Shown here piece by piece: positions 14-58,956 of a stretch of DNA of 64,000 nucleotides (position 1 is its first letter; every line of letters starts with the position of its first letter). Origin of the DNA: a virus; the IMG/VR virus record IMGVR_UViG_3300032242_003291, positions 208,285 to 272,284 of that record; one strand, written 5' to 3'. The notes beneath the pieces were generated by a model. The model was not told the origin of the DNA. It ran no database searches and saw nothing but the letters and a program-made list of their open reading frames with translations. The translations under genes were made by a program, and so were the position numbers.

Positions 14-496
14 TTACCAAGTTCTACATGCCCAATAACGTGGCTTCCATCTTGGTCCAGGATTATCACAATTCATTCTCGCTCTAAAGTTTCTTCTACG
101 TTCGGGATTATTCTTTTTAATTGTCATTCTTTTACCGTGAGCAGATTTTCCACCAAACCCAAAGTTAACCTTAACAACCTTACCCTTATCATTTTTAACA
201 TATACCTTGGACTTCTTCACATCACCTTGCATAATCTTTCCAAGTTGAACTTTACGTCCTTGATATTCAGCCTCATTTATGGAACCTTCTTCAAATTCTG
301 TTTCTTCAACTGAACCATACTCATCTTCATATAAAGTTTCATTTTTAGGCTTTATACCTTTTTTCTTCATGTTGATGGCAATTGCTGCTTGTTGTGCAGG
401 ACTTGATGCTTCGTCCATTTCATTTTCAGATTCTTTAAGAACACGTTTAACCAATTTCATCAAATCGGATTCTGTAAGTCTAACTATCTTTGGCAT
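14..496 (-). CDS. Hypothetical virion protein with the conserved N-terminal motif M-x-K-I-V/I-R-L-T-E-S/N-D-L-x-x-L-V-K/N-R-V-I/L-K/S-E (propeptide-like family, member 1). Lys/Arg-rich body.
   Basis: ORF track 14..556. The internal ATG at 496 gives MPKIVRLTESDLMKLVKRVLKESENE. Paralogous N-termini at 8991..9452 and 37165..37530. Confidence 0.5.
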   Translation of the reverse strand: MPKIVRLTESDLMKLVKRVLKESENEMDEASSPAQQAAIAINMKKKGIKPKNETLYEDEYGSVEETEFEEGSINEAEYQGRKVQLGKIMQGDVKKSKVYVKNDKGKVVKVNFGFGGKSAHGKRMTIKKNNPERRRNFRARMNCDNPGPRWKPRYWACRTW

Positions 497-525
497 AATA
501 AATGTTTTATTATAAATACATACGG

Positions 526-553
526 AAATAAAAAACCCACCATAAAGGTGGGT
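526..553 (-). terminator. Intrinsic terminator: hairpin cccacc-ataaa-ggtggg followed by a T-run on the minus strand.
   Basis: GC stem plus A-run on the plus strand, directly downstream of minus gene 563..2008. Confidence 0.6.
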
Positions 554-562
554 CAATATTTA

Positions 563-2008
563 CTATTGTTCTAACAAATTAAGTTGTGATTTCAAATACT
601 CTGATTGTTTTGCAATTTTCTTTAAAAATTCTTGATAATATTTTTTATTATACTGATAAAGTCCATTTAGATGTTGGGAACCTTTGTTTCCCAATAATTC
701 AAGACTTTCTTTTGATAATGAATTTTTACCTGAGGCATATCCAATTAAATTATCCAATTCTTGTTTAGCACCTTTAGCTCCGACTTTTTGAACTAAACCA
801 TTAATTTCGCTTGTCATATTATTTAAAATCATCTGATTATTTGCAACTATTTCTTGTGGATGATAAAGATATTGTTGATATAAATCTTTATACTTTTCAC
901 CAGCATTTATTGCGTTATCAATACCTTGACCTGTTTCAGACGCTTTAGCATATGCTGATTTATAGTTAGATAATTCAGTTTGTTTAGCGTTTTGAATGGC
1001 TTCATAAGAATTATTCAATTTTGGACTAACCAAAGATGGGTCCTTGATGTGAGTTGCTTCATGATTTAAAACTTGTCTTATTTCTTCTTCACTCTTACCT
1101 GCCAATGCGTCCAAGTTCATATAAATTTTATTTCTACCAACAGCTTCACCAGCAAAAGTTTCGCCAGGAAAACTTTTAACAATCACATCAACTTCTTTTG
1201 TAGTACCATTAACAATCAAATCCAATTTTAAAAAACGTTGTTCCCCTTGTTTAATTATTGGGACCAATTGTGAAATTTGATTTAATTCTGATTCTGCAAA
1301 TTTAATTCCTCCTTGAACTGCCATTCTGGCCAACTTATATGTATTGCCTGACGCGGACTTCAAATTATTTAAAAATCCTTCTTTGGTTATTTTATTTGAA
1401 AGAAATTGTTGGAGTAATTCATTATATTTTTGTTGTCCAAATTTTGAAATAAAATTTGGTTTTAATGATTCGACACTATTAACAATGGGAGTAAGTTTTG
1501 TTGACGCACTTTCTAAACCTTGTTTGACTAAGACCTCATTTTCTTTAATAGCATTCAAAGCAGTTGCTTCCGCAGGAGAGAAAATTTTCACACCTTTAGC
1601 AATTTTGCTTCCCAATGCTGCCATTGCCTTTGAACCTAATTGTTTTACACCAGGAATCTCACCAATGAAAGGTAACAAAGAAAAGGCTGCGGTTATACCC
1701 GCAGCTTTTGTATCTCCTTCATTGTAATAAATTGCTGAATCAGCCAATCCAATACCCGCAGAAATAAATGGACCTACAGCAGGAATAAAGGCCGTACCGA
1801 TGGCGAGAAATCCCATAAGTGTATGTACATCAAATGGTACCCCTTTGCCGTTTGTTGGGTCAATTGTTCCTGATTTAACATTTGTTGTTGGCTGAAGAAA
1901 ATTTGATGGTGCTGATGGTGTAAGAGTTGCGGCAGGTTTGACTCCCTTAACTTGTTCAGATAAGACTCTATTAAATTGTGATTCTGTGACAATAATTTTC
2001 ATTAACAA
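563..2008 (-). CDS. Hypothetical large virion protein. N-terminus MLMKIIVTESQFNRVLSEQ, then a Gly/Ala-rich hydrophobic segment (GFLAIGTAFIPAVGPFISAGIGLA). Paralog of 37546..38718.
   Basis: Long clean ORF. Similar to 37546..38718 at SLLPFIGEIPG versus SAVPYIGDIVAKP. Confidence 0.55.
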   Translation of the reverse strand: MLMKIIVTESQFNRVLSEQVKGVKPAATLTPSAPSNFLQPTTNVKSGTIDPTNGKGVPFDVHTLMGFLAIGTAFIPAVGPFISAGIGLADSAIYYNEGDTKAAGITAAFSLLPFIGEIPGVKQLGSKAMAALGSKIAKGVKIFSPAEATALNAIKENEVLVKQGLESASTKLTPIVNSVESLKPNFISKFGQQKYNELLQQFLSNKITKEGFLNNLKSASGNTYKLARMAVQGGIKFAESELNQISQLVPIIKQGEQRFLKLDLIVNGTTKEVDVIVKSFPGETFAGEAVGRNKIYMNLDALAGKSEEEIRQVLNHEATHIKDPSLVSPKLNNSYEAIQNAKQTELSNYKSAYAKASETGQGIDNAINAGEKYKDLYQQYLYHPQEIVANNQMILNNMTSEINGLVQKVGAKGAKQELDNLIGYASGKNSLSKESLELLGNKGSQHLNGLYQYNKKYYQEFLKKIAKQSEYLKSQLNLLEQ

Positions 2009-2039
2009 TAAATATACCGACCCATTTGTTTGATATAAA

Positions 2040-2068: not shown

Positions 2069-2088
2069 AATATAGAATTATGTTTTAT

Positions 2089-2646
2089 TTAATTATTTTT
2101 ACGTTTTGCAAACTCTGAAAGTTCATATAGTTTAGCAAGGATTGAATCAACGTTCCCACTTAAAAGAATTGTTTCTGTTGTTGGTTGATATCCGTTTCCA
2201 ACTATCTCAACAAAAATACCTTTATAAAGTTTTCTCATGGCAAAAGTTGGGGTATAATTTTGTACTGTAATAGGATTTATATTGGCAGTACTATTAGGAT
2301 ATAAAGAATACACTAATGGTTTACCATATTCAAATTCCATTCTACTAGGAAACATTATATTATCCGTGTTAACATCACTTTTGGTTAAAACCAATGGACT
2401 ATAAGTTGAGGTTGCATATTGACTTTTTGAATTTAACAACCAAGGAAACCCGCGGCGTCCGTTATTCATTACTAACCCTTTTAAGAACTTTGTTACCTCT
2501 TGTTTTTCTTGTGGAGTTAATCCCTTTACCGCAGAATTAACATTTGCAGCAGAAGTTGCCGCAACATCGTCTTCTTTTAATAATCTTTTTTCCAATTTAA
2601 GATTAGCCTCTTGCATGTGTCTAATCTTACTCATACTTCTATTCAT
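2089..2646 (-). CDS. Hypothetical protein. A possible internal start gives MSKIRHMQEANLKLEKRLLKE, ending in L-K-E.
   Basis: ORF track. Coding-like composition. Confidence 0.45.
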   Translation of the reverse strand: MNRSMSKIRHMQEANLKLEKRLLKEDDVAATSAANVNSAVKGLTPQEKQEVTKFLKGLVMNNGRRGFPWLLNSKSQYATSTYSPLVLTKSDVNTDNIMFPSRMEFEYGKPLVYSLYPNSTANINPITVQNYTPTFAMRKLYKGIFVEIVGNGYQPTTETILLSGNVDSILAKLYELSEFAKRKNN

Positions 2647-2687
2647 AAAATTTCTTTATAATAAATATATTGTCAGACCCATTTGTT

Positions 2688-7607: not shown

Positions 7608-8441
7608 TTACATTTTCATACCCGATTGATTCAAACACTCAACCAATCTACGTAATTCTTCTGCAGCTGCAGGGTCTTTTTTAATTCCAAAGGTTACAAG
7701 TAAATCCACAACAATATTATCCAATTGTTTAGTTTCTTCTCTTTTCATAAATTCAGAAATTTTAGGGTAACCACCTTTTGCAATACACGCTTTAATTGCT
7801 GGCATTGCATTTGCAATTGGTTTAGCAATTGCAGAATTCATTTTGTTCTTGATTGATGGTAATGCATTTGCGATTGGTTCATCAATAACTGATTTTAAAC
7901 TTGGTTGATAAGGTAATTGTTGTTCATTAAGTCCAGCAACTCCAAGTAATGCTCCTTTTGCCACATCACCCCATGAACCACCTGATGATTGAGGTTTGTT
8001 TCCCATTCCTGATTGCATTTGTTTGATGAATGGTGCTGCAATTCCCGTAAGACTTGTTGCAATGTTAGAAAGGGTTTTTGAAATATCTCCCCCTGTTACA
8101 GCATTTTTCAATGTTTGATAATGTTGACCCAATCTTGATTTCTCTTGGTCAAGAACTTGATTAAAAGATTTAGCATCTCCGCTTGCCGCCGATTTAATCA
8201 TGTTAAACAATGAAGTTGTTGGTAATGTTTGAAGAATGACATTTCCTAATTGACCATTTATTTCAAGGCCATTTCCAACAGCGCCTAACGAACTTTGTTC
8301 ATTAACCAATGGTTTAGAATCCCCAAGTTTAGAGTTAATTAATTTAGAAAAATTCTCAGTCATTACTTTCATTCCTCCTGAGTGTTGTTCACGGATTGCA
8401 TTTTTTTCTTCTTCCGTTAAGTTATTCAATATGTGCTTCAT
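7608..8441 (-). CDS. Hypothetical virion protein. N-terminus MKHILNNLTEEEKNAIREQ (I-R-E). Gly/Ala-rich.
   Basis: ORF track. Confidence 0.45.
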   Translation of the reverse strand: MKHILNNLTEEEKNAIREQHSGGMKVMTENFSKLINSKLGDSKPLVNEQSSLGAVGNGLEINGQLGNVILQTLPTTSLFNMIKSAASGDAKSFNQVLDQEKSRLGQHYQTLKNAVTGGDISKTLSNIATSLTGIAAPFIKQMQSGMGNKPQSSGGSWGDVAKGALLGVAGLNEQQLPYQPSLKSVIDEPIANALPSIKNKMNSAIAKPIANAMPAIKACIAKGGYPKISEFMKREETKQLDNIVVDLLVTFGIKKDPAAAEELRRLVECLNQSGMKM

Positions 8442-8990: not shown

Positions 8991-9452
8991 TTAGAATTGA
9001 CTAGTTGCACCTGTTGCACCCCCACCATATTGTGTTTGGTTAGGAGCTCCTCCAGTTGCTTTGTTTGGGTATAATTTATTTTTTAATTGAAGTGCATATG
9101 CAATTGCGTTTTGAGATGCTTTTTGTGAATTAGGTGAAACATTAAAAGATTTCACACCTTTATTACCTTGATAAAAAACTTCTAGAGTCCATGGATTTCT
9201 TGATGGGTCATCTCCACAATTTAAAAATACGTTAATACCTGTACTGTGGTTGTTGAAATACATATACTTACAACAAGCATATGGACATTTTTTCCATGTT
9301 GTTGCTTTGGACTCATCAACCAATTTGAATCCCTCTTTAGTTAATTGAGGTACGATTAATTTATTCCAATAATCGAAATCTTCTTGCTCTTTAATTACTC
9401 TATTCACCAAACGAACCAAATCGTTTTCTGTTAATCTTATTATTTTACTCAT
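8991..9452 (-). CDS. Propeptide-motif family member (MSKIIRLTENDLVRLVNRVIKEQED). Cys-containing body.
   Basis: ORF track. The N-terminus is paralogous to 14..496 and 37165..37530. Confidence 0.5.
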   Translation of the reverse strand: MSKIIRLTENDLVRLVNRVIKEQEDFDYWNKLIVPQLTKEGFKLVDESKATTWKKCPYACCKYMYFNNHSTGINVFLNCGDDPSRNPWTLEVFYQGNKGVKSFNVSPNSQKASQNAIAYALQLKNKLYPNKATGGAPNQTQYGGGATGATSQF

Positions 9453-9539
9453 AAAAAATATTTTATAATAAATATATCGAAAAGGTCATTTTTTTCCCAA
9501 AAATTTTTTTTGCGTAACTCAAGGTATTATCCCCCCCAA

Positions 9540-9620
9540 ATGACATTCTGACAGTATAGTAAGGGGGGATACGGGGGGAGGGGGGGTGCCTACCCCATGC
9601 CAAGGGGGGTATATGGGGGA
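9540..9620 (+). repeat. Cluster of five G5-7 tracts on the plus strand, with C-tracts just downstream. G-quadruplex-prone, non-coding.
   Basis: taaGGGGGGatacGGGGGGaGGGGGGGtgcctaccccatgccaaGGGGGGtatatGGGGGagg in a roughly 30% GC genome. Confidence 0.5.
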
Positions 9621-9625
9621 GGTAG

Positions 9626-9634
9626 TTATCCACA
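9626..9634 (+). promoter_or_regulatory. Perfect DnaA box TTATCCACA.
   Basis: Exact 9-mer match. One of at least 8 boxes between 9626 and 11272. Confidence 0.5.
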
Positions 9635-9661
9635 TTTAGTCCCCACCCCTCCCGTTGTCGG

Positions 9662-9670
9662 TGTGGATAA
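9662..9670 (-). promoter_or_regulatory. Perfect DnaA box on the minus strand (plus strand reads TGTGGATAA).
   Basis: Exact match. Confidence 0.5.
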
Positions 9671-9706
9671 CAAACACCCCCTCCTGACATGTTGTCTCAT
9701 AAAAAG

Positions 9707-9731
9707 TTATCCCCATATGGGATGGGGATAA
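9707..9731. promoter_or_regulatory. Inverted pair of DnaA-like boxes TTATCCCCA / TGGGGATAA separated by 7 bp.
   Basis: gttatccccatatgggatggggataag. Confidence 0.4.
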
Positions 9732-9772
9732 GTTTATTTGGTTGTGTGAAAGCTATGTTGTATCTTTGTAGG

Positions 9773-10219
9773 TTATTCAGGTATGGTGTGAGTGTCCTTG
9801 TAGCCAGCGGGGACAATCCATCTACCGATAGATAGTCTTCTTGTGCCAGGTAGCTTAAGGTCGTAAGGCATTGCTGCGGACTTATGAATACCTTTGATTG
9901 TATCTTCTATCTCGTTTGTTACTTCTTTGGCGTCTTCGTATGTACATTTGAATCCTGTGGACAGATATGGGGAGTTATATTCTCTACCATGTTCGATAGA
10001 ACTTACAAGCCAACTTGCAAGACCCCAACCATATTCATCCTCTATCAAGTAGGGGTCGAAGTAAACGTCAATGAAGATAAGGTTATATTCATTTATTCTA
10101 TCCTCTTCCACCCCGACATCAAGTATCCATGGGTATTCACGTTTCAGCGCTTTAGCTGTAACCTTATACTCATAGTTGTCATATAATTCCTGTGGGGTCA
10201 TTGGGTCCGATACTGCCAT
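9773..10219 (-). CDS. Hypothetical protein in the GC-richer island.
   Basis: ORF track. Protein-like composition. Confidence 0.4.
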   Translation of the reverse strand: MAVSDPMTPQELYDNYEYKVTAKALKREYPWILDVGVEEDRINEYNLIFIDVYFDPYLIEDEYGWGLASWLVSSIEHGREYNSPYLSTGFKCTYEDAKEVTNEIEDTIKGIHKSAAMPYDLKLPGTRRLSIGRWIVPAGYKDTHTIPE

Positions 10220-10247
10220 AATGGTAAAACCACATTTGGTTTAGAAT

Positions 10248-10859
10248 GTGGGGATAACTTCTTTTGGTTATATCATAAATACTACATACCTTTGTATTGT
10301 TCGAAGCGGGAGTGTAGAACGGGCGGGGGCAATGTGTCAGCTGAAGAAATCAGAGGTAGGCTATTTGGTCCCCACCCCAAACAGACGAGGGCGTAATACA
10401 AAGGTACGTCTTTTTTCTGTAACTACCAAATCTTTTTTTCGGGATTATTTCGTATCTTTGTACCCTATGAGACTGACAGATAAGATATATAATATGGACC
10501 TATCATACAGGGTGGTGAACTTGACCATTAAGTGGTGTGAGAAGTTCTTTACTGCTCCACACATTAAAAGACGTAGGGAACTTCTTGTCATGATATATCA
10601 TTCCCCCACCCATCAGGTGTTCGGACAATACTGTGATAAGAACCATTGGTTGAGTATTAACATACATAACTGTCCGACAGTTAGGGACCTTATTAAAACT
10701 ACCATCCATGAATATACCCACGTATGTCAGGACCTGAAGGAATATGCTCTTATGAATAAGATGGTGGGGTATGATAAGAATCCTCTTGAAGTCGAAGCAA
10801 GATTGAATGAGGACACATACTATAAGAATTGTTGGAGGAGCATTAAATCGAAGCTTTAA
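10248..10859 (+). CDS. Small HExxH zinc-metallopeptidase-like protein (IHEYTHVCQ). True start probably at 10332 (MCQ...) or 10494 (MDLSYRV...).
   Basis: HExxH motif. TAnnTTTG motifs at 10287 and 10453 lie upstream of the candidate internal starts. Confidence 0.45.
   Translation: MGITSFGYIINTTYLCIVRSGSVERAGAMCQLKKSEVGYLVPTPNRRGRNTKVRLFSVTTKSFFRDYFVSLYPMRLTDKIYNMDLSYRVVNLTIKWCEKFFTAPHIKRRRELLVMIYHSPTHQVFGQYCDKNHWLSINIHNCPTVRDLIKTTIHEYTHVCQDLKEYALMNKMVGYDKNPLEVEARLNEDTYYKNCWRSIKSKL
10249..10257 (-). promoter_or_regulatory. DnaA-like box (TGGGGATAA).
   Basis: 8 of 9 positions match the consensus. Confidence 0.35.
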
Positions 10860-11148
10860 TTAACTCCTGACACTTAGCCACAATATCCTTGGGAGTAATC
10901 TCTTCCCCACCATGGACATATAGTCCTTCCACCTTTGCATCCACACAGGCCCATCCATCTAATCCTATGGGTTTCCTTGAGAAGGACCTCTTAGCCTTCT
11001 CGAAATATAAGGTCCCTAACTCCACTTCCCCACCCATCATCGTGACCACGACCCTGATTCTGTCAGGGTCTAACTGTGTTAACTCATAAGATAATTTGTC
11101 CATGTGTATAAGTATACTTACGGAACACATAAAAATAAAGTTATCCAC
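10843..11148 (-). CDS. Hypothetical protein.
   Basis: ORF track. Confidence 0.35.
   Translation of the reverse strand: MDNFIFMCSVSILIHMDKLSYELTQLDPDRIRVVVTMMGGEVELGTLYFEKAKRSFSRKPIGLDGWACVDAKVEGLYVHGGEEITPKDIVAKCQELIKASI
11140..11148 (+). promoter_or_regulatory. Perfect DnaA box TTATCCACA.
   Basis: Exact match. Confidence 0.5.
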
Positions 11149-11198
11149 AGGTGGGGAATGGTCCTGACGATATGACAGGGTGGAAAAAAAGTTGGGGA

Positions 11199-11207
11199 TG
11201 TGGATAA
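11199..11207 (-). promoter_or_regulatory. Perfect DnaA box on the minus strand (TGTGGATAA).
   Basis: Exact match. Confidence 0.5.
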
Positions 11208-11263
11208 CTTTGGGGGTAAAATATTTGGATTTGTCAGAATGTCAGGGGACCGTTACGATGGGG

Positions 11264-11272
11264 ATAATCCCT
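11264..11272 (-). promoter_or_regulatory. DnaA-like box (TGGGGATAA).
   Basis: 8 of 9 positions match. Confidence 0.35.
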
Positions 11273-11683
11273 CGACACACTTTTCCCCCACTTTCTACCA
11301 CTATTGTTTCCCACATTTTACCACCGAAATAGTCCCCACGTATATAAAAACACCACTTTTTCCCCTCTGTAGGGGTCTACAGGACCAGTTTTTTACTATA
11401 TATAAAACCTAGCAAAAAAAGGAGTAATAAGTGTGAGACGCGGGGAAACGAACGTAGTGAGTGTTTCATGACTATTCAGTCATGGTTTAACCCCCCTTCA
11501 AGGAGGGAACCGATATGTTTTATTACCTCCAACGAGGTGACAACTCAGTCCCCCACTCGTGGTGGAGACCTGTAGTCTGTGATAATATATCGTGTAAATG
11601 TATGATATTTCATTTTATCGTGGGAATCCACGATGCTTATATATCATCTCATCCACATATGTAATGTGTCATAAGTAAACTTA

Positions 11684-11727
11684 TAGCTTGACCCGTAGGG
11701 ATGTTTTGTAAAGTTATAGCTTGACAC
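11684..11727 (+). repeat. Direct repeat of about 14 bp (cttatagcttgac / gttatagcttgac), spaced about 28 bp apart. Iteron-like. The region also contains short perfect hairpins.
   Basis: aaacttatagcttgacccgtagggatgttttgtaaagttatagcttgacaca. Confidence 0.4.
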
Positions 11728-11757
11728 ACTATATCACATATTAAAGTCTCTTCATAT

Positions 11758-12162
11758 ATGTGGGGAATATATTTGGTGGGGGATGTTCCCGACATGGATG
11801 TCGGAGACATATGGATATCCATATTTATCCGCAAATATACGATTGCATATCCGATATTATGTTATACCTTTGTGATTATGAGAAGATTGATATGGGAGTT
11901 CCTTAATATGAAGTATAAAGATATTGTAATATATCATCAGGTCTTTGACCTTGATAACAGACGCACTGAAAAGTTTGTCACTGAAAGTTATCAGAGCATT
12001 ATGGAATTTACTTATTTCTATAGTGGCAAAGATGTAAGGACTCATATAACTCCTGATATTAGAAAAAATATACAGAACTATTTCTGTGTTAATGCTTTAG
12101 ATGTTGAATCATATATTCTTGAATGGTGCCGTGATAAAAGTTATAAGACTATTGAAATGTAA
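11758..12162 (+). CDS. Hypothetical protein. Start probably internal (MRRLIWEF or MKYKDIV).
   Basis: ORF track. Confidence 0.3.
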   Translation: MWGIYLVGDVPDMDVGDIWISIFIRKYTIAYPILCYTFVIMRRLIWEFLNMKYKDIVIYHQVFDLDNRRTEKFVTESYQSIMEFTYFYSGKDVRTHITPDIRKNIQNYFCVNALDVESYILEWCRDKSYKTIEM

Positions 12163-12551: not shown

Positions 12552-12899
12552 TTGGATAATCTAAAAGTATTTATTCATATGAAGATAATCATCACAGAAG
12601 AACAATACGACAAAATCATTAGTCAGAAATCTCTTTTTTGGATTAAGAGAAGAATTGATTTGGTTAAAGACGGATTGAAAGAAACCTTTGAACTTATGGA
12701 GTATGATATTTGTCGAATCGATGATTATTATAAGTTTGAAAAGAAATTCTTCTCTGTATTAATGGATGGTCTTCATCCATATTTTTATGATGATGAAAGT
12801 TTTGACCACGCAGAATATGATGCTATGTATAATACATTAAAGGATTTATACTATGTTGAGTGTACCGAGTTTTATTTTGACGGTAGAGAACGCTGCTAA
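12552..12899 (+). CDS. Hypothetical protein. Likely start MKIIITEEQYDKIISQ at about 12579 (resembles the propeptide motif).
   Basis: ORF track. Confidence 0.35.
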   Translation: MDNLKVFIHMKIIITEEQYDKIISQKSLFWIKRRIDLVKDGLKETFELMEYDICRIDDYYKFEKKFFSVLMDGLHPYFYDDESFDHAEYDAMYNTLKDLYYVECTEFYFDGRERC

Positions 12900-44436: not shown

Positions 44437-44453
44437 TTTTTGTATTTATATGT

Positions 44454-47100: not shown

Positions 47101-47118
47101 GTCCCTTTTCTTTTGCTA
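47088..47118. terminator. Bidirectional terminator hairpin (gggactt-aaat-aagtccc) between convergent genes.
   Basis: Followed by TTTTCTTTTG on the plus strand. Confidence 0.5.
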
Positions 47119-48916
47119 TTAATTCCAATTTGTCTAATTTGTTTTGACTAACTTCAAGAATAACCGATTGTTCTTTTATTGCTTCAATACATAATGCAAC
47201 AATATCTTGATATTTAACTCTTAAAATTTCAGGTTCTTCACCCATTACTACTTCGGGTAATGCGATTTTAAGCTCTTGAGCGATAAACCCTATGTCTCTT
47301 CTTTCATTATTTCCACCTGCTCCGTTTTTCCAAAAGAAACTAACCCCTCTAATTTTTTTAATTGTATTAATTGAATCTTTTATTATTTGGATATCTTTCT
47401 TAAACCTTTGGTCTGATGGACCTGGAGGACCCGTTGGTCCTGTTGGTCCTGGCGCTCCTGTATCACCTGGTGCGCCTCCAGGTCCTGTCGGTCCTGTAGG
47501 TCCTTGAGGACCTTGTGGACCTGTATATCCTGTTGGTCCTCTACCTCCTTGTGGACCTGTTGGTCCTTGTGGTCCTGTTGGTCCTGTTGGACCTGGTGCA
47601 CCACCACCACCTTGGCTTCCTTGAGCTCCTGTAGCACCTCCACCTCCTTGAGCACCCTGAGCACCTCCAGGTCCTGTTGGTCCTGTTGCACCTTGTGGTC
47701 CTCTTGGTCCCTGTGGCCCCGTTGCCCCTTGGGCTCCTTGACCTCCTGTTCCTCCTTGGGCTCCCTGAGCTCCTTGAGCTCCACCAGCTCCTTGAGCTCC
47801 CTGAGCTCCTACGGGTGATGGTCCTGGTATTCCTGTTGCACCTTGAGCACCTTGAGCTCCTGTAGCACCTCCACCTCCTTGTGCACCTTGTGCACCTTGG
47901 CTTCCTCCAGGACCTTGTGCACCTTGGTTTCCTCCAGGACCTTGAGCTCCTTGCGCACCTTGTCCTCCTGTAGCACCTTGGGCTCCTGTTGAACCTCCGC
48001 CTCCTTGTGCACCTTGCGCACCCTGTCCTCCTGTTGCTCCTTGAGCCCCTTGTGGTCCTTGGACTAAAATTCCTGTTGGTCCTTGAGCACCTGTAGCACC
48101 TTGTGGACCTGTAGCTCCTTGAGCACCTGTGATTCCCTGAGCTCCTTGAAACCCTTGTGCTCCTTGACCTCCTTGAGCACCTACTGAACCTAAACTTCCT
48201 TGAGCACCTTGTCCTCCTGTAGTTCCTTGAGCACCTTGTGGTCCAGCATTTCCTTGAGCACCTTGAAATCCTTGGGCTCCGATTGCACCTTGTGAACCTG
48301 TTGCTCCCTGTCCTCCCTGAGCCCCTTGGGCACCTTGTCCTCCTGTTGAACCCGCACCCCCCTGTGCACCTTGTCCTCCTTGAGCACCTTGAGCTCCTTG
48401 TCCTCCTGTCGGTCCTTGAGCACCTTGTGCTCCTGAAGCACCTTGAGCACCCTGAGCGCCTTGTCCTCCCTGAGCACCCTGAGCGCCCGTTGCTCCTCCT
48501 CCTCCTTGAGCACCCTGAGCACCTTGTCCTCCTTGAGCACCCTGAGTTGTACTGTTAGCTCCTTGTGCTCCCGCAGTTCCTTGGGCTCCTTGCGCACCTT
48601 GGATTCCCTGAGCTCCTTGAGCTCCTTGAGCACCTTGAGCCCCTGTTGGTCCTGATGGTCCTGCTGGTTGAGCACTTCCTTTCCAACCTGTACTATCTAT
48701 TAAAGTTCCAAATGAATTAATTAAAGATGTACCTAATCTTAAGTCAGCATTCGAAACTGCTATTGTTGGTTGAGTCGAATTAAATGCTATATAGGTTGTT
48801 GCACCTCTTTTGAATTTAATTGAACCAGATTCAATGACCATTGTTGTTACTGTACTCGCAGTATCACTAAAATCAATTTTGCCCGACCCTGGGGTTATAA
48901 TTATATCTTCAGCCAC
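47093..48916 (-). CDS. Collagen-like (Gly-X-Y) tail-fibre protein with a C-terminal intramolecular-chaperone/auto-processing (peptidase S74-like) domain.
   Basis: N-terminus [12 protein letters not shown]. About 400 aa of GAQ/GPT/GGQ triplets. C-terminus [15 protein letters not shown]...GVSFFWKNG matches the S74 SDxRxKxxI...GV.F.W signature. Confidence 0.7.
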
Positions 48917-50795
48917 CTATTAACTCTTTTAGTTTGTTTATTCTTTGATAGATAGAATCAATTATTTTTTGTTGTTCTTGTATTGAACCAATACCCAAAC
49001 TAACCATCGCACCATATTCTACGGATTTGTATCCGTCTTCATCAGTAAATACTAATTCGGGAACTATATTTTCAACTTGTTGAGCAATAACACCAATAGC
49101 ATTACCTTGAAAGGCTTCAGGTACTTCAATATTTTTGTCATTTATAATTTTCGGATGATTATAATCCCAAACGAAACTAACTCCTTCTATTTGTTTTGTT
49201 TTGCCGTAAACATCAGACAAAGGTTTAATATTATCTTTTAATCTTCTATCTGATGGAGGGCCTTGTGGTCCTTGAGGTCCTGTTGGTCCTTGAGCACCTT
49301 GGGCACCTTGTCCTCCCATACCACCCTGTGGTCCTGTAGGTCCTACGTTTCCTTGAGGTCCTGTGTATCCGTATGGTCCTTGTGGTCCTGTGGCACCTTG
49401 TGGTCCTGTGGCACCTTGAGGTCCTGTTGGTCCTCCAACACCTTGAGCACCTGTTGCTCCTCCACCACCCTGAGAACCTTGCGCACCTGTTGCTCCTCCA
49501 CCACCTGTCGCTCCTTGAGCTCCTTGGAATCCTTGAGCACCTCCTGGTCCTCCTGGCCCTTGAGCACCTTGTGGACCACCTGGTCCTGTGGCACCCGTCG
49601 CACCTGCAGTTCCACTTGCTGCCCCTTGAGCTCCTTGAGCTCCTTGACCTCCAGTTCCACCTTGAGGTCCCGTAGGTCCTTGAGCACCTGTTGCTCCTCC
49701 TCCACCTGCGGTTCCTTGAGCTCCTTGAGCTCCAGTTGTGGCACTTGCAGCACCTTGAGCACCTGTTGGTCCCTGAGAACCTTGAGCACCTTGAGCACCT
49801 GTTGTTCCACCCTGAGCACCTTGAGCACCAGTACCTCCTTGAGCGCCTTGGGCACCTTGAGCACCTGTTGTTCCACCTTGTGCTCCTTGAGCTCCTGTGG
49901 CACCTTGAGGACCTAATCCTCCTTGAGCCCCTGTGGCACCTTGAGCACCTGTTGAACCTTGAGCACCTTGAGCACCTGTTGAACCTTGAGCACCTTGTAC
50001 ACCACCTTGAGCTCCTTGAGCTCCTTGAGCACCTTGTGGACCTTGTGGGCCTTGAGCACCTTGAGTAAGTCCTTGAGCTCCTTGAGCACCTGTAGCTCCT
50101 TGAAAACCCTGAGCTCCTTGAGCTCCTGTTACCACACTTGCACTTCCTTGAGCTCCTTGGGCTCCTGTATTCCCTGTGGCTCCCTGAGCTCCAGTTGTCA
50201 CACCTTGAGCCCCTTGTGCTCCCTGAGCTCCCGTATTTCCTGTAGCTCCTTGAGCCCCTGTATTAGCACCTTGTGCACCTTGAGCACCTGTTGAGCCTTG
50301 AGCCCCTGTATTACCTTGAGCCCCTGTGTTGGCACCTTGTGCACCTTGGGCACCTGTCGAACCTTGAGCACCTGTTGCCCCTTGAGCACCTGTCGCCCCT
50401 TGAGCACCTGTTGTACCTATAGTACCTTGAGCCCCTGCTGAACCTTGAGCCCCTGTAGGACCTGTGTTACCTGGAGCTCCTGTTGCTCCTTGAGCACCTT
50501 GACCACCTTGTGCACCTGCGGAGCCTTGAGCACCTGCTATACCTGATGTGGGTCCAACCCAAACTCCTGTATTATCAATCATCTTAAGACCACCAACATA
50601 TAAATTACCTGTTACTGAAGTTCCACTTGAAACCATAGTATCTGTAATTGTTGATGAACTTGTGTTAGTTGAAGATGAAAAAACAATTTGACCATTTTGT
50701 ACATCTATTGCCATCAAATTTGTTCCGTCATTAAACAACGCGTAAGGGTCAGTAATAGTTCCTTTACCTTGTGGATATATAATTACATTAGCCAT
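48909..50795 (-). CDS. Collagen-like tail-fibre protein with a C-terminal S74-like chaperone domain.
   Basis: N-terminus [12 protein letters not shown]. Gly-X-Y repeats. C-terminus [34 protein letters not shown]. Confidence 0.7.
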
Positions 50796-53700
50796 TAATT
50801 CAATTTATTTTCTAAGTCTTTTAATTGTTCTTCGATGTCTTCAATAAATACTTGTTGTTCTTTTATACCTTCAACTAAAACCGCATTTAATTTAGCATAC
50901 TCAACTTTATAATATCCATCTTCCGTAGTTTGTATTACTTCAGGGTAATATTCTCTAACGTTTTGTGCAATTAATCCAATTGAGTGTAATCTATCTTGTT
51001 TTTGATAATAAACGTATTGACTTGGATTTAATTTTTCGTTCCAATCAAATTCAACAACATCAAACTTCAATATAGATTTCAATGTATCAGGAATTGTTTC
51101 AATTCCTTGTTTTAATCTTCTATCTGAACAAAATCCCTGTGCAGACCAATAACTTCGATTATCTAAGTAACCGTAAACACCACAGATTTTAACGTAATTA
51201 TTTTCAATTCCTGTACCCGAGTTATTAAATGTTTGACATGCATAGTACGTAGGATATAAAAGTCCATATCCTCTTGATGAAATATTACATGCATAGTCAT
51301 TTCCAAAAACTAAACCACCATTACCATAATAACAAGCATAGCTTATAGAAGGTCCCCATTCGATACTAAGACTATAACAAGTTTGATATGCTGATGGACC
51401 TGTCGGACCTGCTGGACCTGATGGGCCTTGAGCTCCTTGCGCTCCTTGATAACCAGTAGGTCCTGTATATCCGTATGGTCCTGGAGGGCCGTAGGGTCCT
51501 GTTGGTCCTTGTGGCCCTGTTGGTCCTGTTGGTCCTGTACCACCTTGAGGTCCTTGTGGTCCAGTACCTCCCTGTGCCCCTGTTGCACCTCCACCACCTT
51601 GTGACCCTTGTGCACCTGTCGCACCTTGTGGGCCTGTTGGACCTGTCGGTCCCGTGGCTCCTTGTGCTCCTGTGGCACCACCTCCTCCTGTGCTACCTTG
51701 AGCTCCTTGAGCTCCTGTTGGACCTCCTGGACCTGTTGGACCTGTGGGTCCACGAGAACCTTGACCTCCTGGTGCTCCTGTTGAACCTTGTGGTCCCGCC
51801 GCGCCTCCACCTCCTTGAGCTCCTTGAGCTCCTTGTCCTCCTTGTGCTCCTGTATTACCTGTGGCTCCTTGTGGACCTCTTGTTCCTGTAGCACCTGGTG
51901 AACCTTGAGCTCCTGTGGCACCTCCCGCTCCTTGTGGACCAACATTACCCGTATTTCCTTGTGCACCTTGGTTCCCTGTACCACCCGTAGCACCTGTTGG
52001 ACCTCTAAAACCTACAGCTCCTTGTGCCCCTGTTGGTCCTACTGGACCTTGAGCACCTTGTGGTCCTGTGGCTCCTTGTGCCCCTGTATTACCTTGAGCC
52101 CCTTGTGGACCTTGAGCACCTTGTGGGCCTGAAGCTCCTTGTGCACCTGTAGGTCCTTGTGCCCCTGTACTACCTTGAGCCCCTTGTGGTCCTACAAAAC
52201 CTGTATTACCTTGTGCACCTATATTACCTTGAGCTCCTTGTCCACCTGTTGGTCCACGTGAACCTTGTGCTCCTTGTCCTCCTTGAGCTCCTGTATCCCC
52301 TCCCGTTCCTGTTGGACCTACAGCACCTGTGGCACCTCCCAAACCTTGTGAACCATTTGCTCCCGTCGCACCTTGTGGTCCTGGTGCACCTGTTTTTTTT
52401 ATGATTAAGTTGTAGTTATTACCAATAGTTAGAGAACCAACAAAAGAATCATTAGTAAGTATAGCATAAAATGTACCAAAATCAGTTACACTTGTAATTA
52501 AAGTATTTATCCAACCATTAGTACCATCAGTATATGTAAGTGAATCACCAACATAAGGTAAAGCTAATGTATTTCCATTAAAATCAGTTTTGTTTACATT
52601 TGCTCTTTTTGCTAATGATTTATATAATTGTCCTGCGTCATTCGAAAAAGCATATTGATACGGGTTTGTATTACCTGCATAACCTTGAGCCCCTTGACCT
52701 CCTTGCGACCCTGTATTACCTGTGCTACCTTGGGAGCCTGTTGCACCTTGAGCACCTGTATTACCTTGAGCACCTGTATTACCTTGAGCCCCTTGTCCTC
52801 CTTGTGCTCCTGTTGTACCAACAGCTCCTTGAGCTCCTGTTGTACCTTGTGTACCTTGCGGTCCTTTATATCCAACACATTTACCTACACAACTTGTATA
52901 TGCATATCCTGTTGGACAAGTGTATCCTGATGAAATATATATTCCATTTACGTTTTGAACAACTTCTGCACTTGTTTTACCACTTGATGATGAAATAATA
53001 TTCAATTGGGAAACACTTGTAGCTGCCGTTAATTGGGCTAATGTATTATCATAAACTTCATATCCAAAACCTTGGATTGAACCTTCGTTCAGTCCATAAA
53101 GTTCTAAAGTATGATTTCCCCCAGACAAAGTAATTGGATAGACGTTCCAATATTTGAATGTATTAGGACTTCCTGAAGTTGAAGGGGTATATGTATTTAC
53201 AACATCTGTTGAATCTAATCTAAGTCTGTATTCGTTGTCCGCACCAACACCAATATAGTAGGTTTTACCAGCAGTTATTCCTGACAAACATGTAGAATAA
53301 CCATACCAATAATAATCTTGTACTGTTGAACCTGATTTACCAGACCTATTTAATGGTCCGTCAAGTCCACTTGGTTGAGTTCTTCTCCAAACACCAGCAT
53401 TTAATGACGTTGCTTGAACAGTACCAGAACCATCAGTGGCATATCCTGAAGCGAAAAATCTTGTTCCAAAATCACTATATTCAATAGCGGCCGTATTTGT
53501 TAATGAAACCGTAAAGGCTGGTGGTGTTGGGTCTATAATGTTACCTGTGTATCCTTGTGCACCTGCAGCACCTTGTGCACCTGAAATATTTGTGGTTGGT
53601 CCAACCCAACTTGATGTTGCGTTTATGACTTGAGTTCCGTTAACTCCAAAGTAACCTGTGACATTTAATGAACTACCAATTGATATAATTGCGTTACTTG

Positions 53701-53866
53701 GCTGAATTGATAATACACTACTTTGTGTGGTCGAACTAAATTGTACTGTCGCACCTGATAAAACTTGTAAAGTAAGAGTTCCTGTATTAGTAAAATTGAT
53801 GTAAGGTATACGTGTTGCCAACCTTGATACCGCATTACTCGGATAGATTATTATATTTTTAGCCAT
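50795..53866 (-). CDS. Large collagen-like tail-fibre protein (1023 aa) with a globular beta-rich middle domain and a C-terminal S74-like chaperone domain.
   Basis: N-terminus [13 protein letters not shown]. Two Gly-X-Y blocks. C-terminus [31 protein letters not shown]. Confidence 0.7.
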
Positions 53867-53983
53867 GAACTAGTTTTCTATTATCCTATAAATACAACGA
53901 AATTTATTATTAGTGGAATATTTCATTCCTTTTTATTTTTAATTTTACTATAATTTAGCCTACAATAAACACATATTAATATT

Positions 53984-54721
53984 ATGACAATAAAGAAACC
54001 TTGTAGTAGAATTTTTTTAGTGAACTTATTTGCAGACTTTATATTATCAAAAATCCCTATTACTGAAAACTCAATTATAAATGTAGTAGACTGCAAAAAC
54101 TTTTTTGTTGTGAAAGGAAAAACTTCATCAAAAGATTTATTAAATTTATCTGAAATTATCACAGAATTTTCGAGTAAGTTTTCAAATTATATTATAGAAA
54201 ATAAAATTACACATACAATTGATTTAATCGAATACGACCAAGAATTAAATCCATACAAAAATTCAACTTTTACATATTACAATAGTGACAATTGTTCTTA
54301 CCATTACGAACAAATCAGTGCGTACAAACAAAAAGAATCATCATATGAGTATATTCATTTTCTAAATGAAATTAATGATGAGGAATTTATTACACAATCA
54401 GAATTCCCACATGGGTACTCATTGGGACAAGGGAGATTATTATATTACTATGGTAAACATATAATGTATAATATTCCTTCAAATTATCCCGTTACTTATT
54501 TAACTTTCAATTTATCAACTGAAAAGAATGAGGATGGTGAACAATTATTTTCTATCGATAAAAATGAGGAATTAACTTCTGCAGTATTAGATGTTTTTGA
54601 TTTTGATATGAGTTGGTTAGAAACAGAAATGAAAAAAGTGGATTGGTCTGTTGAACTTACCAACCCACTTCAGGATTATGATTTCTTAAAAAGAATTATT
54701 GACGGATTTATTATTATATAA
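53984..54721 (+). CDS. Hypothetical protein.
   Basis: ORF track. Divergent from the fibre genes. Confidence 0.4.
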   Translation: MTIKKPCSRIFLVNLFADFILSKIPITENSIINVVDCKNFFVVKGKTSSKDLLNLSEIITEFSSKFSNYIIENKITHTIDLIEYDQELNPYKNSTFTYYNSDNCSYHYEQISAYKQKESSYEYIHFLNEINDEEFITQSEFPHGYSLGQGRLLYYYGKHIMYNIPSNYPVTYLTFNLSTEKNEDGEQLFSIDKNEELTSAVLDVFDFDMSWLETEMKKVDWSVELTNPLQDYDFLKRIIDGFIII

Positions 54722-55013
54722 TTCCAACCTTTTTTCTATGATTATTAATGATATCAACAGCTTCGGTTAATTCCATATAATCTCTATCAGGAGCATACAA
54801 GAATGATTCATAGGTTTCACCCTCACCTTCAATCACTAATAAAGCAGGTATCATATCATTTTCAGTTATTTTAGAATACGTATCATATTCTTTTTCATGT
54901 TCGTGAATATCTCTATCAAAAAACTCAATTCCTTCTTTAACTAGCATTTCTTTGAATTGGTCACAAAAAGGACACCCTTTCATAGTATAGACAATAACGT
55001 TTAAGTCTTTCAT
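54714..55013 (-). CDS. Glutaredoxin-like protein (NrdC/NrdH-like).
   Basis: VIVYTMKGCPFCDQFKEML is a CPxC redox motif with glutaredoxin spacing. Confidence 0.6.
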   Translation of the reverse strand: MKDLNVIVYTMKGCPFCDQFKEMLVKEGIEFFDRDIHEHEKEYDTYSKITENDMIPALLVIEGEGETYESFLYAPDRDYMELTEAVDIINNHRKKVGII

Positions 55014-55014
55014 A

Positions 55015-55338
55015 TTAATCTAATAAGTTTAGCACTTCTCCTGGAGTCATCACACCTGGTCTTGAAAAAACCTCTTTACCCTCTTTGAAGATTTTTATAG
55101 TTGGTACACTTCTAATACCTAATTCATTGACAACGAATTCTTTATCAGTATCGATATCGTATTTGTAGATATTGTATTTTGGAGCACTTGTTGATTCTTT
55201 AATTAAAGTTTCATTAACCTTTGATAGGTTGTTTAACATTATTTTACAAGGTCCGCACCATGTCGCAAATAAATCTAATACAAAATCTTCCCCATTTTGC
55301 ATTTTTTCTTTAAGTTGGTCTGTTGTTAGTTGTTGCAT
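55015..55338 (-). CDS. trx: Thioredoxin.
   Basis: LDLFATWCGPCKIM has the canonical WCGPC active site. Protein is 107 aa. Confidence 0.7.
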   Translation of the reverse strand: MQQLTTDQLKEKMQNGEDFVLDLFATWCGPCKIMLNNLSKVNETLIKESTSAPKYNIYKYDIDTDKEFVVNELGIRSVPTIKIFKEGKEVFSRPGVMTPGEVLNLLD

Positions 55339-57297: not shown

Positions 57298-57299
57298 TG

Positions 57300-57345
57300 C
57301 AAATATAAGAAAATAAAAAAGGAGAACAAACGTTCTCCTTATATT
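57300..57345 (-). terminator. Intrinsic terminator (ggagaac-gtttg-ttctcc followed by T-run on the minus strand).
   Basis: Downstream of minus gene 57344..57625. Confidence 0.5.
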
Positions 57346-57625
57346 AATTTAGACAAATTAGTCCGTATTTTGTTGTTATGAATATGTCTTTGATTTTCTT
57401 ATCCAAGACAGGGTCTTTACCATTAATCTTAACACAAATCTCCATTAATTGAGTTTGAGTTAAACTAGCTTCTTCTCCTTTATCAAAGTTTTTTGAAGCT
57501 TGTTCACGAATTTTGACATAAAATTCTTCTTCTTTATCTTTAGGTACCAAATTTAATAAATCATTTGGGTTCTCCCTGAAGAATTTTAAGATGTTATTCA
57601 TGTATATGTCAACATCAACACTCAT
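57344..57625 (-). CDS. Hypothetical protein.
   Basis: ORF track. Confidence 0.35.
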   Translation of the reverse strand: MSVDVDIYMNNILKFFRENPNDLLNLVPKDKEEEFYVKIREQASKNFDKGEEASLTQTQLMEICVKINGKDPVLDKKIKDIFITTKYGLICLN

Positions 57626-57642
57626 AGATTAAATTTTTGAGA

Positions 57643-58956
57643 TTACTCTTGAAGGTCCCACATTCCTCCACCCATATCAGTACCTTTTGCTTTGATTGAT
57701 TCAGGAACATTAACATTATTACTTCCTTTTAAGTTTAAGAAGTATAAGTTTGGAATGTCCGCAATACATTCAGGAATTGATTTCAACTTAGGGTTATTAA
57801 TTAACGCTAAGAATCTTAACTTAGGTAATGAACAAATTGCATCTGGTACACTTTCAATACAGTTATCCAAAAGAATCATATGTAAGTTTTTGAATCTTCC
57901 GATTTCCTGTGGAATATTAATAGTGATATCACTCTTGTTATCTCTATTTTGAATTTGGAATTCTTGTAGAGTATCAGGTAAATTACCAATCAAATCATCT
58001 AAACCATAAAGAGCAATGAATTTACCAATTGCACCATGACTGAAACTATCAATTATTAATTTTTCACCACCAACCGTAAGTCCTTTCGCAAATTCAGGTT
58101 TGAATAACTCTTTCAACTCTTTCATTGGACCATTTAAGTATTGAACCAAATCAATCTGATGGTCATGAATATCCATGAATTGATTGGATGGGAAATGGAA
58201 TTGATATCTTTCTTTTGGTAAACCTGATGGGTGAACGTTTGTATCAGTTGGTTTGTAAACCACATATAATGGACCATCCTTAATATATCTATCGAACCAA
58301 TTCAAACCAGGTCCTGAAGTACACCATCTTGTTTCTTGTTGATTACCACCGTAAAAACATGCAGCTTCTTTTCCTAACGCACCTTTATCTTTGATTTCAA
58401 CAACTCTCCACTCATCACCATCATATAAAAGTTTTGAGCCAGGATGAACTGTTGCCGTTTTTCTTTCAGTTTTAGTTGTTGTTGCAAGAGTCAAATCAAA
58501 ATCTTTAACCGCATCAAATAACTGACGAGGAGTTAATTTGTTAATATCTTTTTCACCTTTAATCTTATTCTTGAATCTATCGAATTTTGTAAGGTCCTCA
58601 GTTACTTTATATAAATCCTCCATAAAAAGGTCCTTAACTTGCTTAACCTCTTTCTCATATCCATTATCACCAGGTTGTCTTTCTGTTGTTGGAGTTAAGT
58701 AATTTTTAATTAACCATTGAACATACTTACCCACCTTGATTTTCTCAAGTTCTTTTGGGTCTTTACTATCAGGGTCAACGTTGTTCATTCTTGACGTTGG
58801 GTCAGCCTGAACTAATGCCATGAACTCTTGTTTAGTCAGTTTTGGTTTAGTTTTATTCCCTTTTTTATCCTCACTAGGTTTTGTTAGTGCGTTGTATAAA
58901 ACCTCAAACCTTGACTGTTCTGATATTATTGATTTAAGTATTGACGTAAATTTCAT
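57643..58956 (-). CDS. Virion-protein candidate with a propeptide-like N-terminus (MKFTSILKSIISEQ) and C-terminal leucine-rich repeats.
   Basis: The C-terminal roughly 100 aa contain the LRR pattern LxxLxLxxNxL repeated several times: NLHMILLDNCIESVPDAICSLPKLRFLALINNPKLKSIPECIADIPNLYFLNLKGSN. Confidence 0.5.
   Translation of the reverse strand: MKFTSILKSIISEQSRFEVLYNALTKPSEDKKGNKTKPKLTKQEFMALVQADPTSRMNNVDPDSKDPKELEKIKVGKYVQWLIKNYLTPTTERQPGDNGYEKEVKQVKDLFMEDLYKVTEDLTKFDRFKNKIKGEKDINKLTPRQLFDAVKDFDLTLATTTKTERKTATVHPGSKLLYDGDEWRVVEIKDKGALGKEAACFYGGNQQETRWCTSGPGLNWFDRYIKDGPLYVVYKPTDTNVHPSGLPKERYQFHFPSNQFMDIHDHQIDLVQYLNGPMKELKELFKPEFAKGLTVGGEKLIIDSFSHGAIGKFIALYGLDDLIGNLPDTLQEFQIQNRDNKSDITINIPQEIGRFKNLHMILLDNCIESVPDAICSLPKLRFLALINNPKLKSIPECIADIPNLYFLNLKGSNNVNVPESIKAKGTDMGGGMWDLQE

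Follow-up and report, generated by a model that had tools for sequence, protein, structure and literature searches.

A conserved N-terminal leader on many proteins of an uncultured giant phage, compared with the capsid targeting sequences of T4

It has been reported that the prohead protease of phage T4, gp21, cleaves after L/I-X-E and that the T4 internal proteins IPI-III carry capsid targeting sequences of 10-19 residues that bind the core and are later removed, and the authors of that review have suggested that T4-like phages can use tags of this kind to load a variety of proteins (PMC9026906). Many head-internal proteins, ejection proteins among them, have also been reported for phiKZ, 201phi2-1, and SPN3US, whose capsids contain about 50 proteins. 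These head-internal proteins include paralogues with identical N-termini and are processed after Glu by a prohead protease that is related to the T4 protease (PMC5694885). In this work, we analysed a stretch of 64,000 nucleotides from the IMG/VR virus record IMGVR_UViG_3300032242_003291 (positions 208,285 to 272,284), which is referred to as the window. The window has 13 genes whose proteins begin with a leader that spans the first 9-48 residues and ends in hydrophobic-x-Glu. We lean towards the reading that these leaders are T4-like cleavable capsid-targeting propeptides that would be used on a scale far beyond that of T4.

Both the leaders in this work and those of the T4 internal proteins are short N-terminal sequences that end in L/I-x-E and are attached to otherwise unrelated proteins that are often basic and look non-essential. 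Both are also accompanied by a co-encoded Peptidase_S77 protease and a Gp23 capsid protein bearing a matching N-terminal site, which in this work are found in relatives and not in the window. The resemblance to the T4 leader MKTYQEFIAE (M-K-x-x-x-E-hydrophobic-hydrophobic-x-E) is by eye only, with no detectable homology, where a sequence of ten residues is too short for a meaningful test. In contrast to T4, the main leader in this work is longer (22 residues) and far more conserved, and the residue after the Glu (P1') is usually Gln while that of T4 is Ala. The scale also differs, with 13 genes in 64 kb and thousands of families in this work and about four in T4. Internal copies and copies outside phages exist in this work. 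The proteases of phiKZ, 201phi2-1, and SPN3US use S/A/G-x-E or A-x-E (PMC5694885), whereas 98% of the 155 unique leaders in this work have Ile, Leu, or Val as the P3 residue. The propeptides of those giant phages are also often longer than 100 residues. The head module that accompanies the leaders in this work is gp23/gp21-like in sequence.

The window has a low GC content of about 32% and a high coding density, with a predominance of the minus strand and one tRNA-Met. The megablast and tblastn searches of the window against 50,697 GenBank phage records exhibited no close match. The initial annotation had described near-identical N-terminal 22-mers on three proteins (14..496, 8991..9452, and 37165..37530), and the translation of their open reading frames (ORFs) agrees with it exactly. 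Their consensus is M-x-K-I-[IV]-R-L-T-E-[SN]-D-L-x-x-L-V-x-R-V-[IL]-x-E with 13 invariant positions, and all three genes are on the minus strand. The 22-mer profile scores only these three among the window proteins (E 4e-16 to 5e-18), and therefore the remaining leaders in the window are related by pattern and not by detectable homology. At least ten further window proteins have a leader ending in hydrophobic-x-Glu that is usually followed by Gln. The sequences that had been listed for the further L/I-x-E leaders were confirmed by translation, with two amendments. The start of 563..2008 is probably wrong, and from sequence the most likely start is the ATG at 2002 (MKIIVTE..., matching a related class). 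The start of 12552..12899 is most likely 12579, and the membership of this gene is doubtful because its leader (..KIISQK) has no Glu at the expected position. The leader-bearing genes are listed below, where a slash denotes the position after the Glu and L-numbers are the labels of the genomic loci compared.

14..496, minus strand: 22-mer coding sequence with leader MPKIVRLTESDLMKLVKRVLKE/S coded by 431..496; the body is basic (pI 9.6) with a C-terminal phrog_7595 domain; GTATTTAT is 23 nt upstream.
8991..9452, minus strand: 22-mer coding sequence with leader MSKIIRLTENDLVRLVNRVIKE/Q coded by 9387..9452; ATATTTAT is 23 nt upstream.
37165..37530, minus strand: 22-mer coding sequence with leader MAKKIIRLTENDLTNLVKRVISE/Q coded by 37462..37530; the body is PG_binding_1; directly downstream of 37546..38718 in the same orientation.
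563..2002, minus strand: class-2 leader coding sequence with leader MKIIVTESQFNRVLSE/Q coded by 1955..2002; the body has a Gly/Ala-rich hydrophobic stretch and a HEATH motif; the leader class recurs in related loci; ATATTTAT is 13 nt upstream.
2089..2646, minus strand: class-3 leader coding sequence with leader MNRSMSKIRHMQEANLKLEKRLLKE/D coded by 2572..2646; the class-3 pattern SKIRHIQESN...LLxE/Q is found in at least eight related proteins; a promoter-like motif is 22 nt upstream.
7608..8441, minus strand: class-4 leader coding sequence with leader MKHILNNLTEEEKNAIRE/QH...KPLVNE/Q, the conserved part coded by 8298..8441; the leader class recurs in related loci; a promoter-like motif is 22 nt upstream.
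32321..33358, minus strand: class-5 leader coding sequence with leader ...ITRMKSLFGYQRGRVISE/Q coded by 33275..33358; the leader class recurs in related loci; a promoter-like motif is 21 nt upstream.
20241..20681, minus strand: leader coding sequence that had been missed earlier, with leader MKLHEEISRIKSILYE/D coded by 20634..20681; the leader resembles the recurrent class MNLxENIxRIKExMG..E/Q.
37546..38718, minus strand: short-leader coding sequence with leader MAEIIISTKQLAVIQE/N coded by 38671..38718; the body is Gly/Ala-rich; a promoter-like motif is 22 nt upstream.
42358..44118, minus strand: short-leader coding sequence with leader MKFSEIILE/N coded by 44092..44118; a homologue in locus L037 begins MKFSEFVLSE; a promoter-like motif is 22 nt upstream of the window gene.
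57643..58956, minus strand: short-leader coding sequence with leader MKFTSILKSIISE/Q coded by 58918..58956; a weak C-terminal LRR signal; a promoter-like motif is 24 nt upstream.
45458..46246, plus strand: short-leader coding sequence with leader MKIEQMIHKVLEE/Q coded by 45458..45496; a HEVAH motif in the body; the second gene after the promoter-like motif at 44442.
46246..47100, plus strand: short-leader coding sequence with a 14-residue leader, then /Q, coded by 46246..46287; the body has a HEMIH motif and a weak Peptidase_M91 match; an orthologue in locus L066 begins MKKILNILNHLIVE/Q.
12579..12899, plus strand: doubtful member with MKIIITEEQYDKIISQK, a class-2-like start; GTATTTAT is 12 nt upstream.

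The leader itself has no match in Pfam and PHROGs, and a PHROGs search of ten further window proteins gave nothing informative. The pI is at least 9 in 8 of 14 window leader proteins. The bodies had been described as unrelated to each other, which mostly holds. An exception is the pair 42358..44118 and 57643..58956, where a common domain of about 130 residues (E 4e-7) has a conserved W-C-T motif. This domain matches phrog_17056 and phrog_28193, which are PHROG families without known function. Among the peptidoglycan-binding, LRR, and HExxH-peptidase bodies that had been proposed, the PG_binding_1 match of 37165..37530 is alone in passing the Pfam cut-off, while LRR and Peptidase_M91 are below threshold.

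The bare [LI]-x-E motif is found in the first 25 residues of 38 of the 95 window genes where about 25% is expected. This enrichment is modest, and the bare motif is weak evidence. The longer motif [LIV][LIVK]-x-E-[QN] has 9 of its 20 window matches within the first 25 residues. In a pooled set of 1,902 proteins (window and related loci), the first 30 residues exhibit a 7-10 times enrichment of [LIV]-x-E-Q, which is also found without the 22-mer proteins. With these removed, the motif occurs 1.6, 3.1, and 2.9 times per 1,000 positions at residues 1-10, 11-20, and 21-30, respectively, and about 0.3 times further in. The controls [LIV]-x-D-Q and [LIV]-x-Q-E are flat with no N-terminal peak in the same proteins. 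Chance or composition as the source of the motif was rejected because of this strong positional enrichment and the flat controls. The motif is present in the first 50 residues of 153 proteins without the 22-mer, many of which belong to recurrent leader classes. These classes are MK[IY]IITE.Q..., M.RSYSKIRHIQESN...LL.E, MKHLLNNLSEEEKN.IRE, ...FIITEEEKN.IK.LYE, MN..ENI.RIKE.MG...E, ...MK.LFGYK.GKVISE, and ...ESTIGDVKPLI.E. Five recurrent classes have one window member each (563..2002, 2089..2646, 7608..8441, 32321..33358, and 20241..20681).

The conservation of the leader collapses directly after the Glu, which is conserved in at least 90% of sequences. The P3 residue is Ile in 77%, Leu in 10%, and Val in 11% of the unique leaders, P1' is Gln in 40%, Ser in 19%, and Asn in 12%, and the 15 residues after the Glu are enriched in Pro, Asp, Glu, and Gln. 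The invariant Leu, Ser, and Arg residues are encoded by several synonymous codons that include both Ser codon boxes, and the three window copies of the 22-mer differ at many third codon positions. Nucleotide identity of the leader beyond its amino acid conservation was tested and not found. The codon usage indicates that selection acts on the leader at the protein level. A DNA repeat was rejected as the explanation because synonymous sites vary. The AlphaFold2 model of the leader alignment exhibits an extended stretch at residues 1-8 and a helix at residues 9-29 (pLDDT 88).

The 22-mer, in the form M-K-K-I-I-R-L-T-E-S-D-L-x-R-I-V-K-R-V-I-x-E, is the longest and best-conserved version of the leader, and the short leaders match its second half. 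Orthologues of the 14..496 body carry the 22-mer, MKIQLTESELISLIESIIGK, or the short MNINEIIKKVLKE, which is the second half of the 22-mer. The leader classes look interchangeable because orthologous bodies carry different leaders. The short leaders in the window (..HKVLEE/Q, ..KSIISE/Q, and ..ENVISE/Q) are plausibly minimal versions.

Related contigs that carry leader genes also have a T4-type head module. Among the large genes in leader-anchored loci are those for a gp6-like baseplate wedge protein, a DnaB-like helicase, a large terminase, and a Clp-type ATPase, and four of these loci have a major head protein gene. The gene order in L085 is ribosomal protein S21, a 152-residue ORF, a 239-residue protein, a 71-residue protein, an acidic 533-residue protein, and the head protein. 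The 239-residue protein (L085:960-1679) is Peptidase_S77, the family of the T4 gp21 prohead protease (Pfam E 7e-23), and it matches annotated gp21 proteases in 2,521 phage records. The head protein (L085:3711-5564) is Gp23 (PF07068, Pfam E 3e-72) and can be aligned to T4 gp23* structures. Among cultured phages, the closest head proteins are those of Microcystis phage Mel-JY01 and Flavobacterium phage immuto with 41-43% identity. In the capsid protein, ...ENQASFLINE/ATSDG precedes by 10 residues the first block that aligns to T4 gp23*, and T4 gp23 is cut at ...FLTE/A in the corresponding region. The protease has L-I-E at residues 16-18, which is paralleled near the N-terminus of T4 gp21. The scaffold-like protein beside the capsid gene has a conserved 48-residue N-terminus ending in ...ELVKESL[KST]E/Q that is followed by variable acidic sequence. 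Leader positions 9-26 align with scaffold positions 35-52 in hhalign (P 0.005), which is suggestive only. Phage-encoded ribosomal protein S21 (PF01165) is also found within the head module, beside the protease or the scaffold, at L085:214-402 (minus strand) and at L257:9713-9952 (plus strand), which are from two distant relatives.

The S77 protease co-occurs with leader genes on the related contigs L085 and L021, and a 22-mer gene is found in 8 of 80 protease-anchored loci (80 of more than 579 loci). The link between the window and a T4-type head is drawn from these relatives because the 64-kb window holds no head gene. The window is linked to them by identical leader families and by 40 genes with homology and synteny to leader-bearing IMG/VR loci such as L066, L083, L015, and L027. 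By the same comparison, the phage from which the window derives would encode an S77 protease. That phage is probably a giant phage, AT-rich and uncultured, from a T4-like lineage with a capsid of the gp23 type and a protease of the gp21 type, and its host is probably a freshwater Bacteroidota bacterium.

A complete relative was identified with the Prevotella-type leader that is described below. The search of GenBank phages with that leader gave only an E=4 match, and LR756508.1 (484 kb, complete, uncultured phage; L257-L267) matches it weakly. LR756508.1 has 17 genes with the sister leader M-[RK]-L-[ST]-E-[RK]-K-L-R-[RK]-I-V-K-E-E-I-x-R-V-L-x-E, 14 of which are located between 155 and 195 kb around the head genes. 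Its Gp23 capsid protein (PF07068 E 3e-82) has ...QQLLKE/ASRTG, where the LLKE/A site is 10 residues before the first conserved capsid block. Its S77 homologue is split into two pieces at 156.6-158.1 kb, and the gap of about 1.1 kb between them may be due to an intervening element. The assignment of LYRGT-containing leader proteins of this phage as Alt-like ADP-ribosyltransferases was dropped because it has no Pfam support.

The bodies of leader proteins are depleted in the motif at which they would be cut. The observed/expected ratio of [LI]-x-E is 0.92 in leader-protein bodies and 1.10 in other proteins of the same loci. The ratio between both is 0.84 with redundancy removed (bootstrap confidence interval 0.76-0.93) and 0.86 with size matching (0.76-0.97), while six control motifs have ratios of 0.91-1.13 with intervals that include 1.

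The leader genes also share an upstream signal with head genes. Of the 22-mer genes, 74% have TATTTAT in the 45 nt upstream. The share is 59% for the other genes with hydrophobic-x-E-Q and 31% for the rest. The position of TATTTAT is mostly -20 to -25 in leader genes and mostly -11 to -13 in the remaining genes. In the protease-anchored loci L163 and L105, TATTTAT is found at -21 to -36 before the protease, scaffold, and portal genes, and in L105 it is also found at -20 before TerL. In the window, the promoter-like motif is found upstream of almost all leader genes and of the collagen-like fibre operon. Examples of the motif, [AG]TATTTAT[AT], in the window are 512..519 (minus strand), 2008..2015 (minus strand), 9468..9475 (minus strand), 44442..44449 (plus strand), and 53888..53895 (minus strand). 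Two spacing classes are exhibited, with about -11 to -13 in most genes and about -20 to -36 in leader, fibre-operon, and head genes.

The 22-mer defines a very large family that has no cultured member and comes from metagenomes only. The 44-column profile identified 31 short proteins that are all leader-first and then completely divergent. The 30-position profile searched against 1.84 billion cluster representatives gave 7,647 matches at E<=1e-3 and 831 at E<=1e-10, and the match is almost always at residues 1-28 of these 7,647 representatives. None of the leader clusters examined has a functional name. In IMG/VR, more than 400 loci with the leader were identified on contigs of up to 322 kb. 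In total, 239 leader proteins are encoded in the 86 IMG/VR loci that were analysed (1.32 Mb). Their median length is 128 residues, and as many as nine are found in 20 kb. In these loci, 231 of 243 motif copies are N-terminal, starting within the first 12 residues, and these 231 copies precede 146 distinct bodies. Only ten families match these 146 bodies in Pfam, and seven of the matches are cell-wall directed (four PG_binding_1, Tae4, LysM, and OmpA). The bodies of leader proteins are more often basic, with pI above 8.5 in 39% against 26% of other proteins. The motif persists across lineages of 30-46% GC. The 22-mer and the 49-residue class-4 leader have no match in the 50,697 GenBank phage records, and the literature that was searched has no match for RLTESDL or LTESDL and no paper describing the leader system.

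Internal copies of the leader were also identified. About 25 of the top 150 matches have a second, internal copy where M-K-K-I-I is lost and (L)-T-E-S-D-L-x-R-I-V-K-R-V-I-x-E is kept. The metagenome proteins P0032-P0058 and P0158 have two or three copies of the leader helix, one ahead of each domain. Such multi-copy proteins are either gene fusions or polyprotein-like arrangements.

The leader is also found in bacterial chromosomes. A scan of one genome per prokaryotic species identified 13 leader loci, mostly in Prevotella/Segatella genomes and rumen metagenome-assembled genomes. The Prevotella-type proteins begin with MNKKLIRLTESDLHRIVKESVNRVL-x-E and then diverge, where the leader is MNKKLIRLTESDLHRIVKESVNRVLxE. 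The flanks of these loci are chromosomal, for example glycoside hydrolase and TonB-dependent receptor genes, and no phage head genes are in view. In five loci, the leader gene is convergent with an IS1595 transposase (PF12762, E 3e-45). These variable small leader proteins and the IS1595-family transposase are located at about 4990..6450 of L246, L248, L251, L253, and L255, and at 4992..5341 of L252 (Segatella bryantii DSM 11371), a genome in which a remnant of the transposase is kept. In the Prevotella loci, nucleotide-level conservation covers the promoter-plus-leader block and the transposase, and the body between them varies.

The mechanism that we propose follows that of T4. The leader would form a short extended stretch and then an amphipathic helix ending in hydrophobic-x-Glu, usually with Gln next. 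The helix would act like the T4 capsid targeting sequence and bind the scaffolding core while the prohead assembles, and this binding may mimic the N-terminal helix of the scaffold itself (...E-L-V-K-E-S-L-K-E/Q). The S77 prohead protease would then cut after the Glu and release the body within the head. The small, often basic, and highly diverse bodies would travel in the virion and probably exit with the DNA.

Capsid targeting, which had been proposed in the initial annotation, is consistent with the I/L/V-x-E ends of the leaders, with the S77 and Gp23 genes of relatives, with the depletion of [LI]-x-E in bodies, and with the promoter spacing that leader genes and head genes have in common. 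Several findings weigh against it. The 64-kb window has neither an S77 protease nor a capsid gene, the resemblance between leader and scaffold is statistically weak, and the depletion is only about 15%. The internal copies (12 of 243) keep the whole helix, which would be superfluous for a pure N-terminal signal. The few recognisable bodies are cell-wall directed, which would also fit export or envelope targeting. The homologous leader beside IS1595 in Prevotella chromosomes requires an extra assumption for capsid targeting there. The terminal Glu could also be a structural helix end because L-x-E is conserved in the Prevotella copies as well. The Prevotella copies, the internal copies, and the cell-wall bodies keep two rival explanations alive.

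The first rival is that the leader is an uncleaved docking or oligomerisation helix that joins diverse bodies to one partner (a virion component, a chaperone, or a host factor), where the Glu is a helix cap. This explanation accounts for internal copies that conserve the full helix beyond a cut site, for the high confidence with which the helix is predicted, and for the L-x-E of Prevotella homologues where no S77 protease is evident. However, many unrelated leader classes have only the terminal hydrophobic-x-E-Q in common, conservation ends exactly at the Glu, and [LI]-x-E is depleted in bodies. The capsid, scaffold, and protease of the lineage also bear the motif where T4 proteins are cut. 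We consider the docking helix doubtful.

The second rival is that the leader is a signal for localisation in or export from the host cell, for example to the envelope or periplasm of Bacteroidota, that is common to phages and mobile elements and independent of the capsid. The peptidoglycan-directed domains among the Pfam matches, the Gly/Ala-rich hydrophobic stretches in window members, and the homologues beside IS1595 transposases in Prevotella are in line with it. However, direct reading of the leader, with no dedicated predictor run, identified no uncharged hydrophobic core (about 7-15 residues), lipobox, Cys, or RR-x-F-L-K of Sec, lipoprotein, or Tat signals, and charged residues are found every 2-4 positions. 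Genes with ordinary Sec or lipoprotein signals coexist in leader loci, the leader genes of LR756508 cluster around head genes, the promoter spacing is that of head genes, and the [LI]-x-E depletion is left unexplained. We regard a localisation signal as quite unlikely.

Two known kinds of leader are comparable in this respect. The double-glycine leaders of class II bacteriocins and competence peptides are amphipathic N-termini of 15-25 residues with an L-[ST]-x-x-[ED]-L-x-x-I core and diverse cargo. The leaders in this work also have an N-terminal amphipathic character, that core, and diverse cargo. Unlike double-glycine leaders, they have no Gly-Gly (or Gly-Ala/Ser) at positions -2/-1, which are x-Glu, and their cargo is 100-500 residues in a phage context. 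No C39 peptidase transporter was seen, and no search was aimed at one. Polymorphic toxins and type VI secretion effectors have conserved short N-terminal marker motifs on hypervariable C-terminal domains. The leader proteins likewise exhibit a short N-terminal marker and hypervariable bodies, one of which is the Tae4 amidase, but they are found in the context of a phage head module, and no secretion-system genes or immunity partners were identified.

The third rival, in which a DNA-level recombination cassette (terminator, promoter, 5' untranslated region, and first codons) shuffles genes of a hypervariable region and the peptide is functionless, is barely tenable: 22-mer genes do share upstream k-mers (TATTTAT as above, and the A-rich 5' untranslated k-mer AATAAAA in 35% against 11% of other genes), several leader genes of the window have terminator-like hairpins upstream, and the conserved nucleotide block of Prevotella spans promoter and leader, but synonymous codons vary freely at invariant residues, including many third positions of the three window copies, the motif is kept across the whole GC range of its lineages, and internal copies have no promoter context.

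The capsid-targeting reading can be extended to a general head-loading code of a large clade of uncultured T4-like giant phages, where dozens of rapidly exchanged effectors that include cell-wall enzymes are packed and injected by each phage and the IS1595-linked Prevotella genes have copied the code for loading into the heads of infecting phages (a Trojan-horse defence or hitch-hiking). We consider this extension very improbable.

If the leader is a capsid-targeting propeptide, the three or four internal proteins of T4 with a 10-residue tag become a large system in abundant uncultured freshwater phages, where one conserved tag is found on thousands of protein families and dozens per genome. 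Injected cargo would then be recognisable from sequence alone, and anti-defence or host-takeover proteins would be expected there, as is the case with T4 IPI. A role would be assigned to much unannotated sequence in these phage genomes, and a ready-made conserved tag would be available for packing foreign proteins into capsids. With the chromosomal copies in Prevotella, it can also be asked whether the tag is used by cells or transposons.

Other features of the window were also identified. The GOLLD RNA family (RF02032) has a full-length match at 33432..33849 (minus strand; 325 bits, E 2e-92), about 760 nt from the tRNA-Met gene at 34610..34681 (minus strand), and a large structured RNA is therefore present in this phage. 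The region 9463..12162 has about 40% GC against the background of 32%, with no convincing ORFs and no Rfam match at the gathering score. Three consecutive collagen-repeat proteins with a C-terminal Peptidase_S74 chaperone domain are encoded in 47093..53866 (minus strand), where the GC of 46-50% is well above the rest, and these proteins are probably tail or head fibres. The auxiliary genes in the last 10 kb are 54714..55338, 59000..59839, 60053..60970, and 62570..62752 (all minus strand). The glutaredoxin-like and thioredoxin-like ORFs among the auxiliary genes were assigned by sequence reading, while a Dam-type methyltransferase, a full DnaJ, and an Hc1 histone-like protein are precomputed Pfam matches in the identical Logan contig L006.

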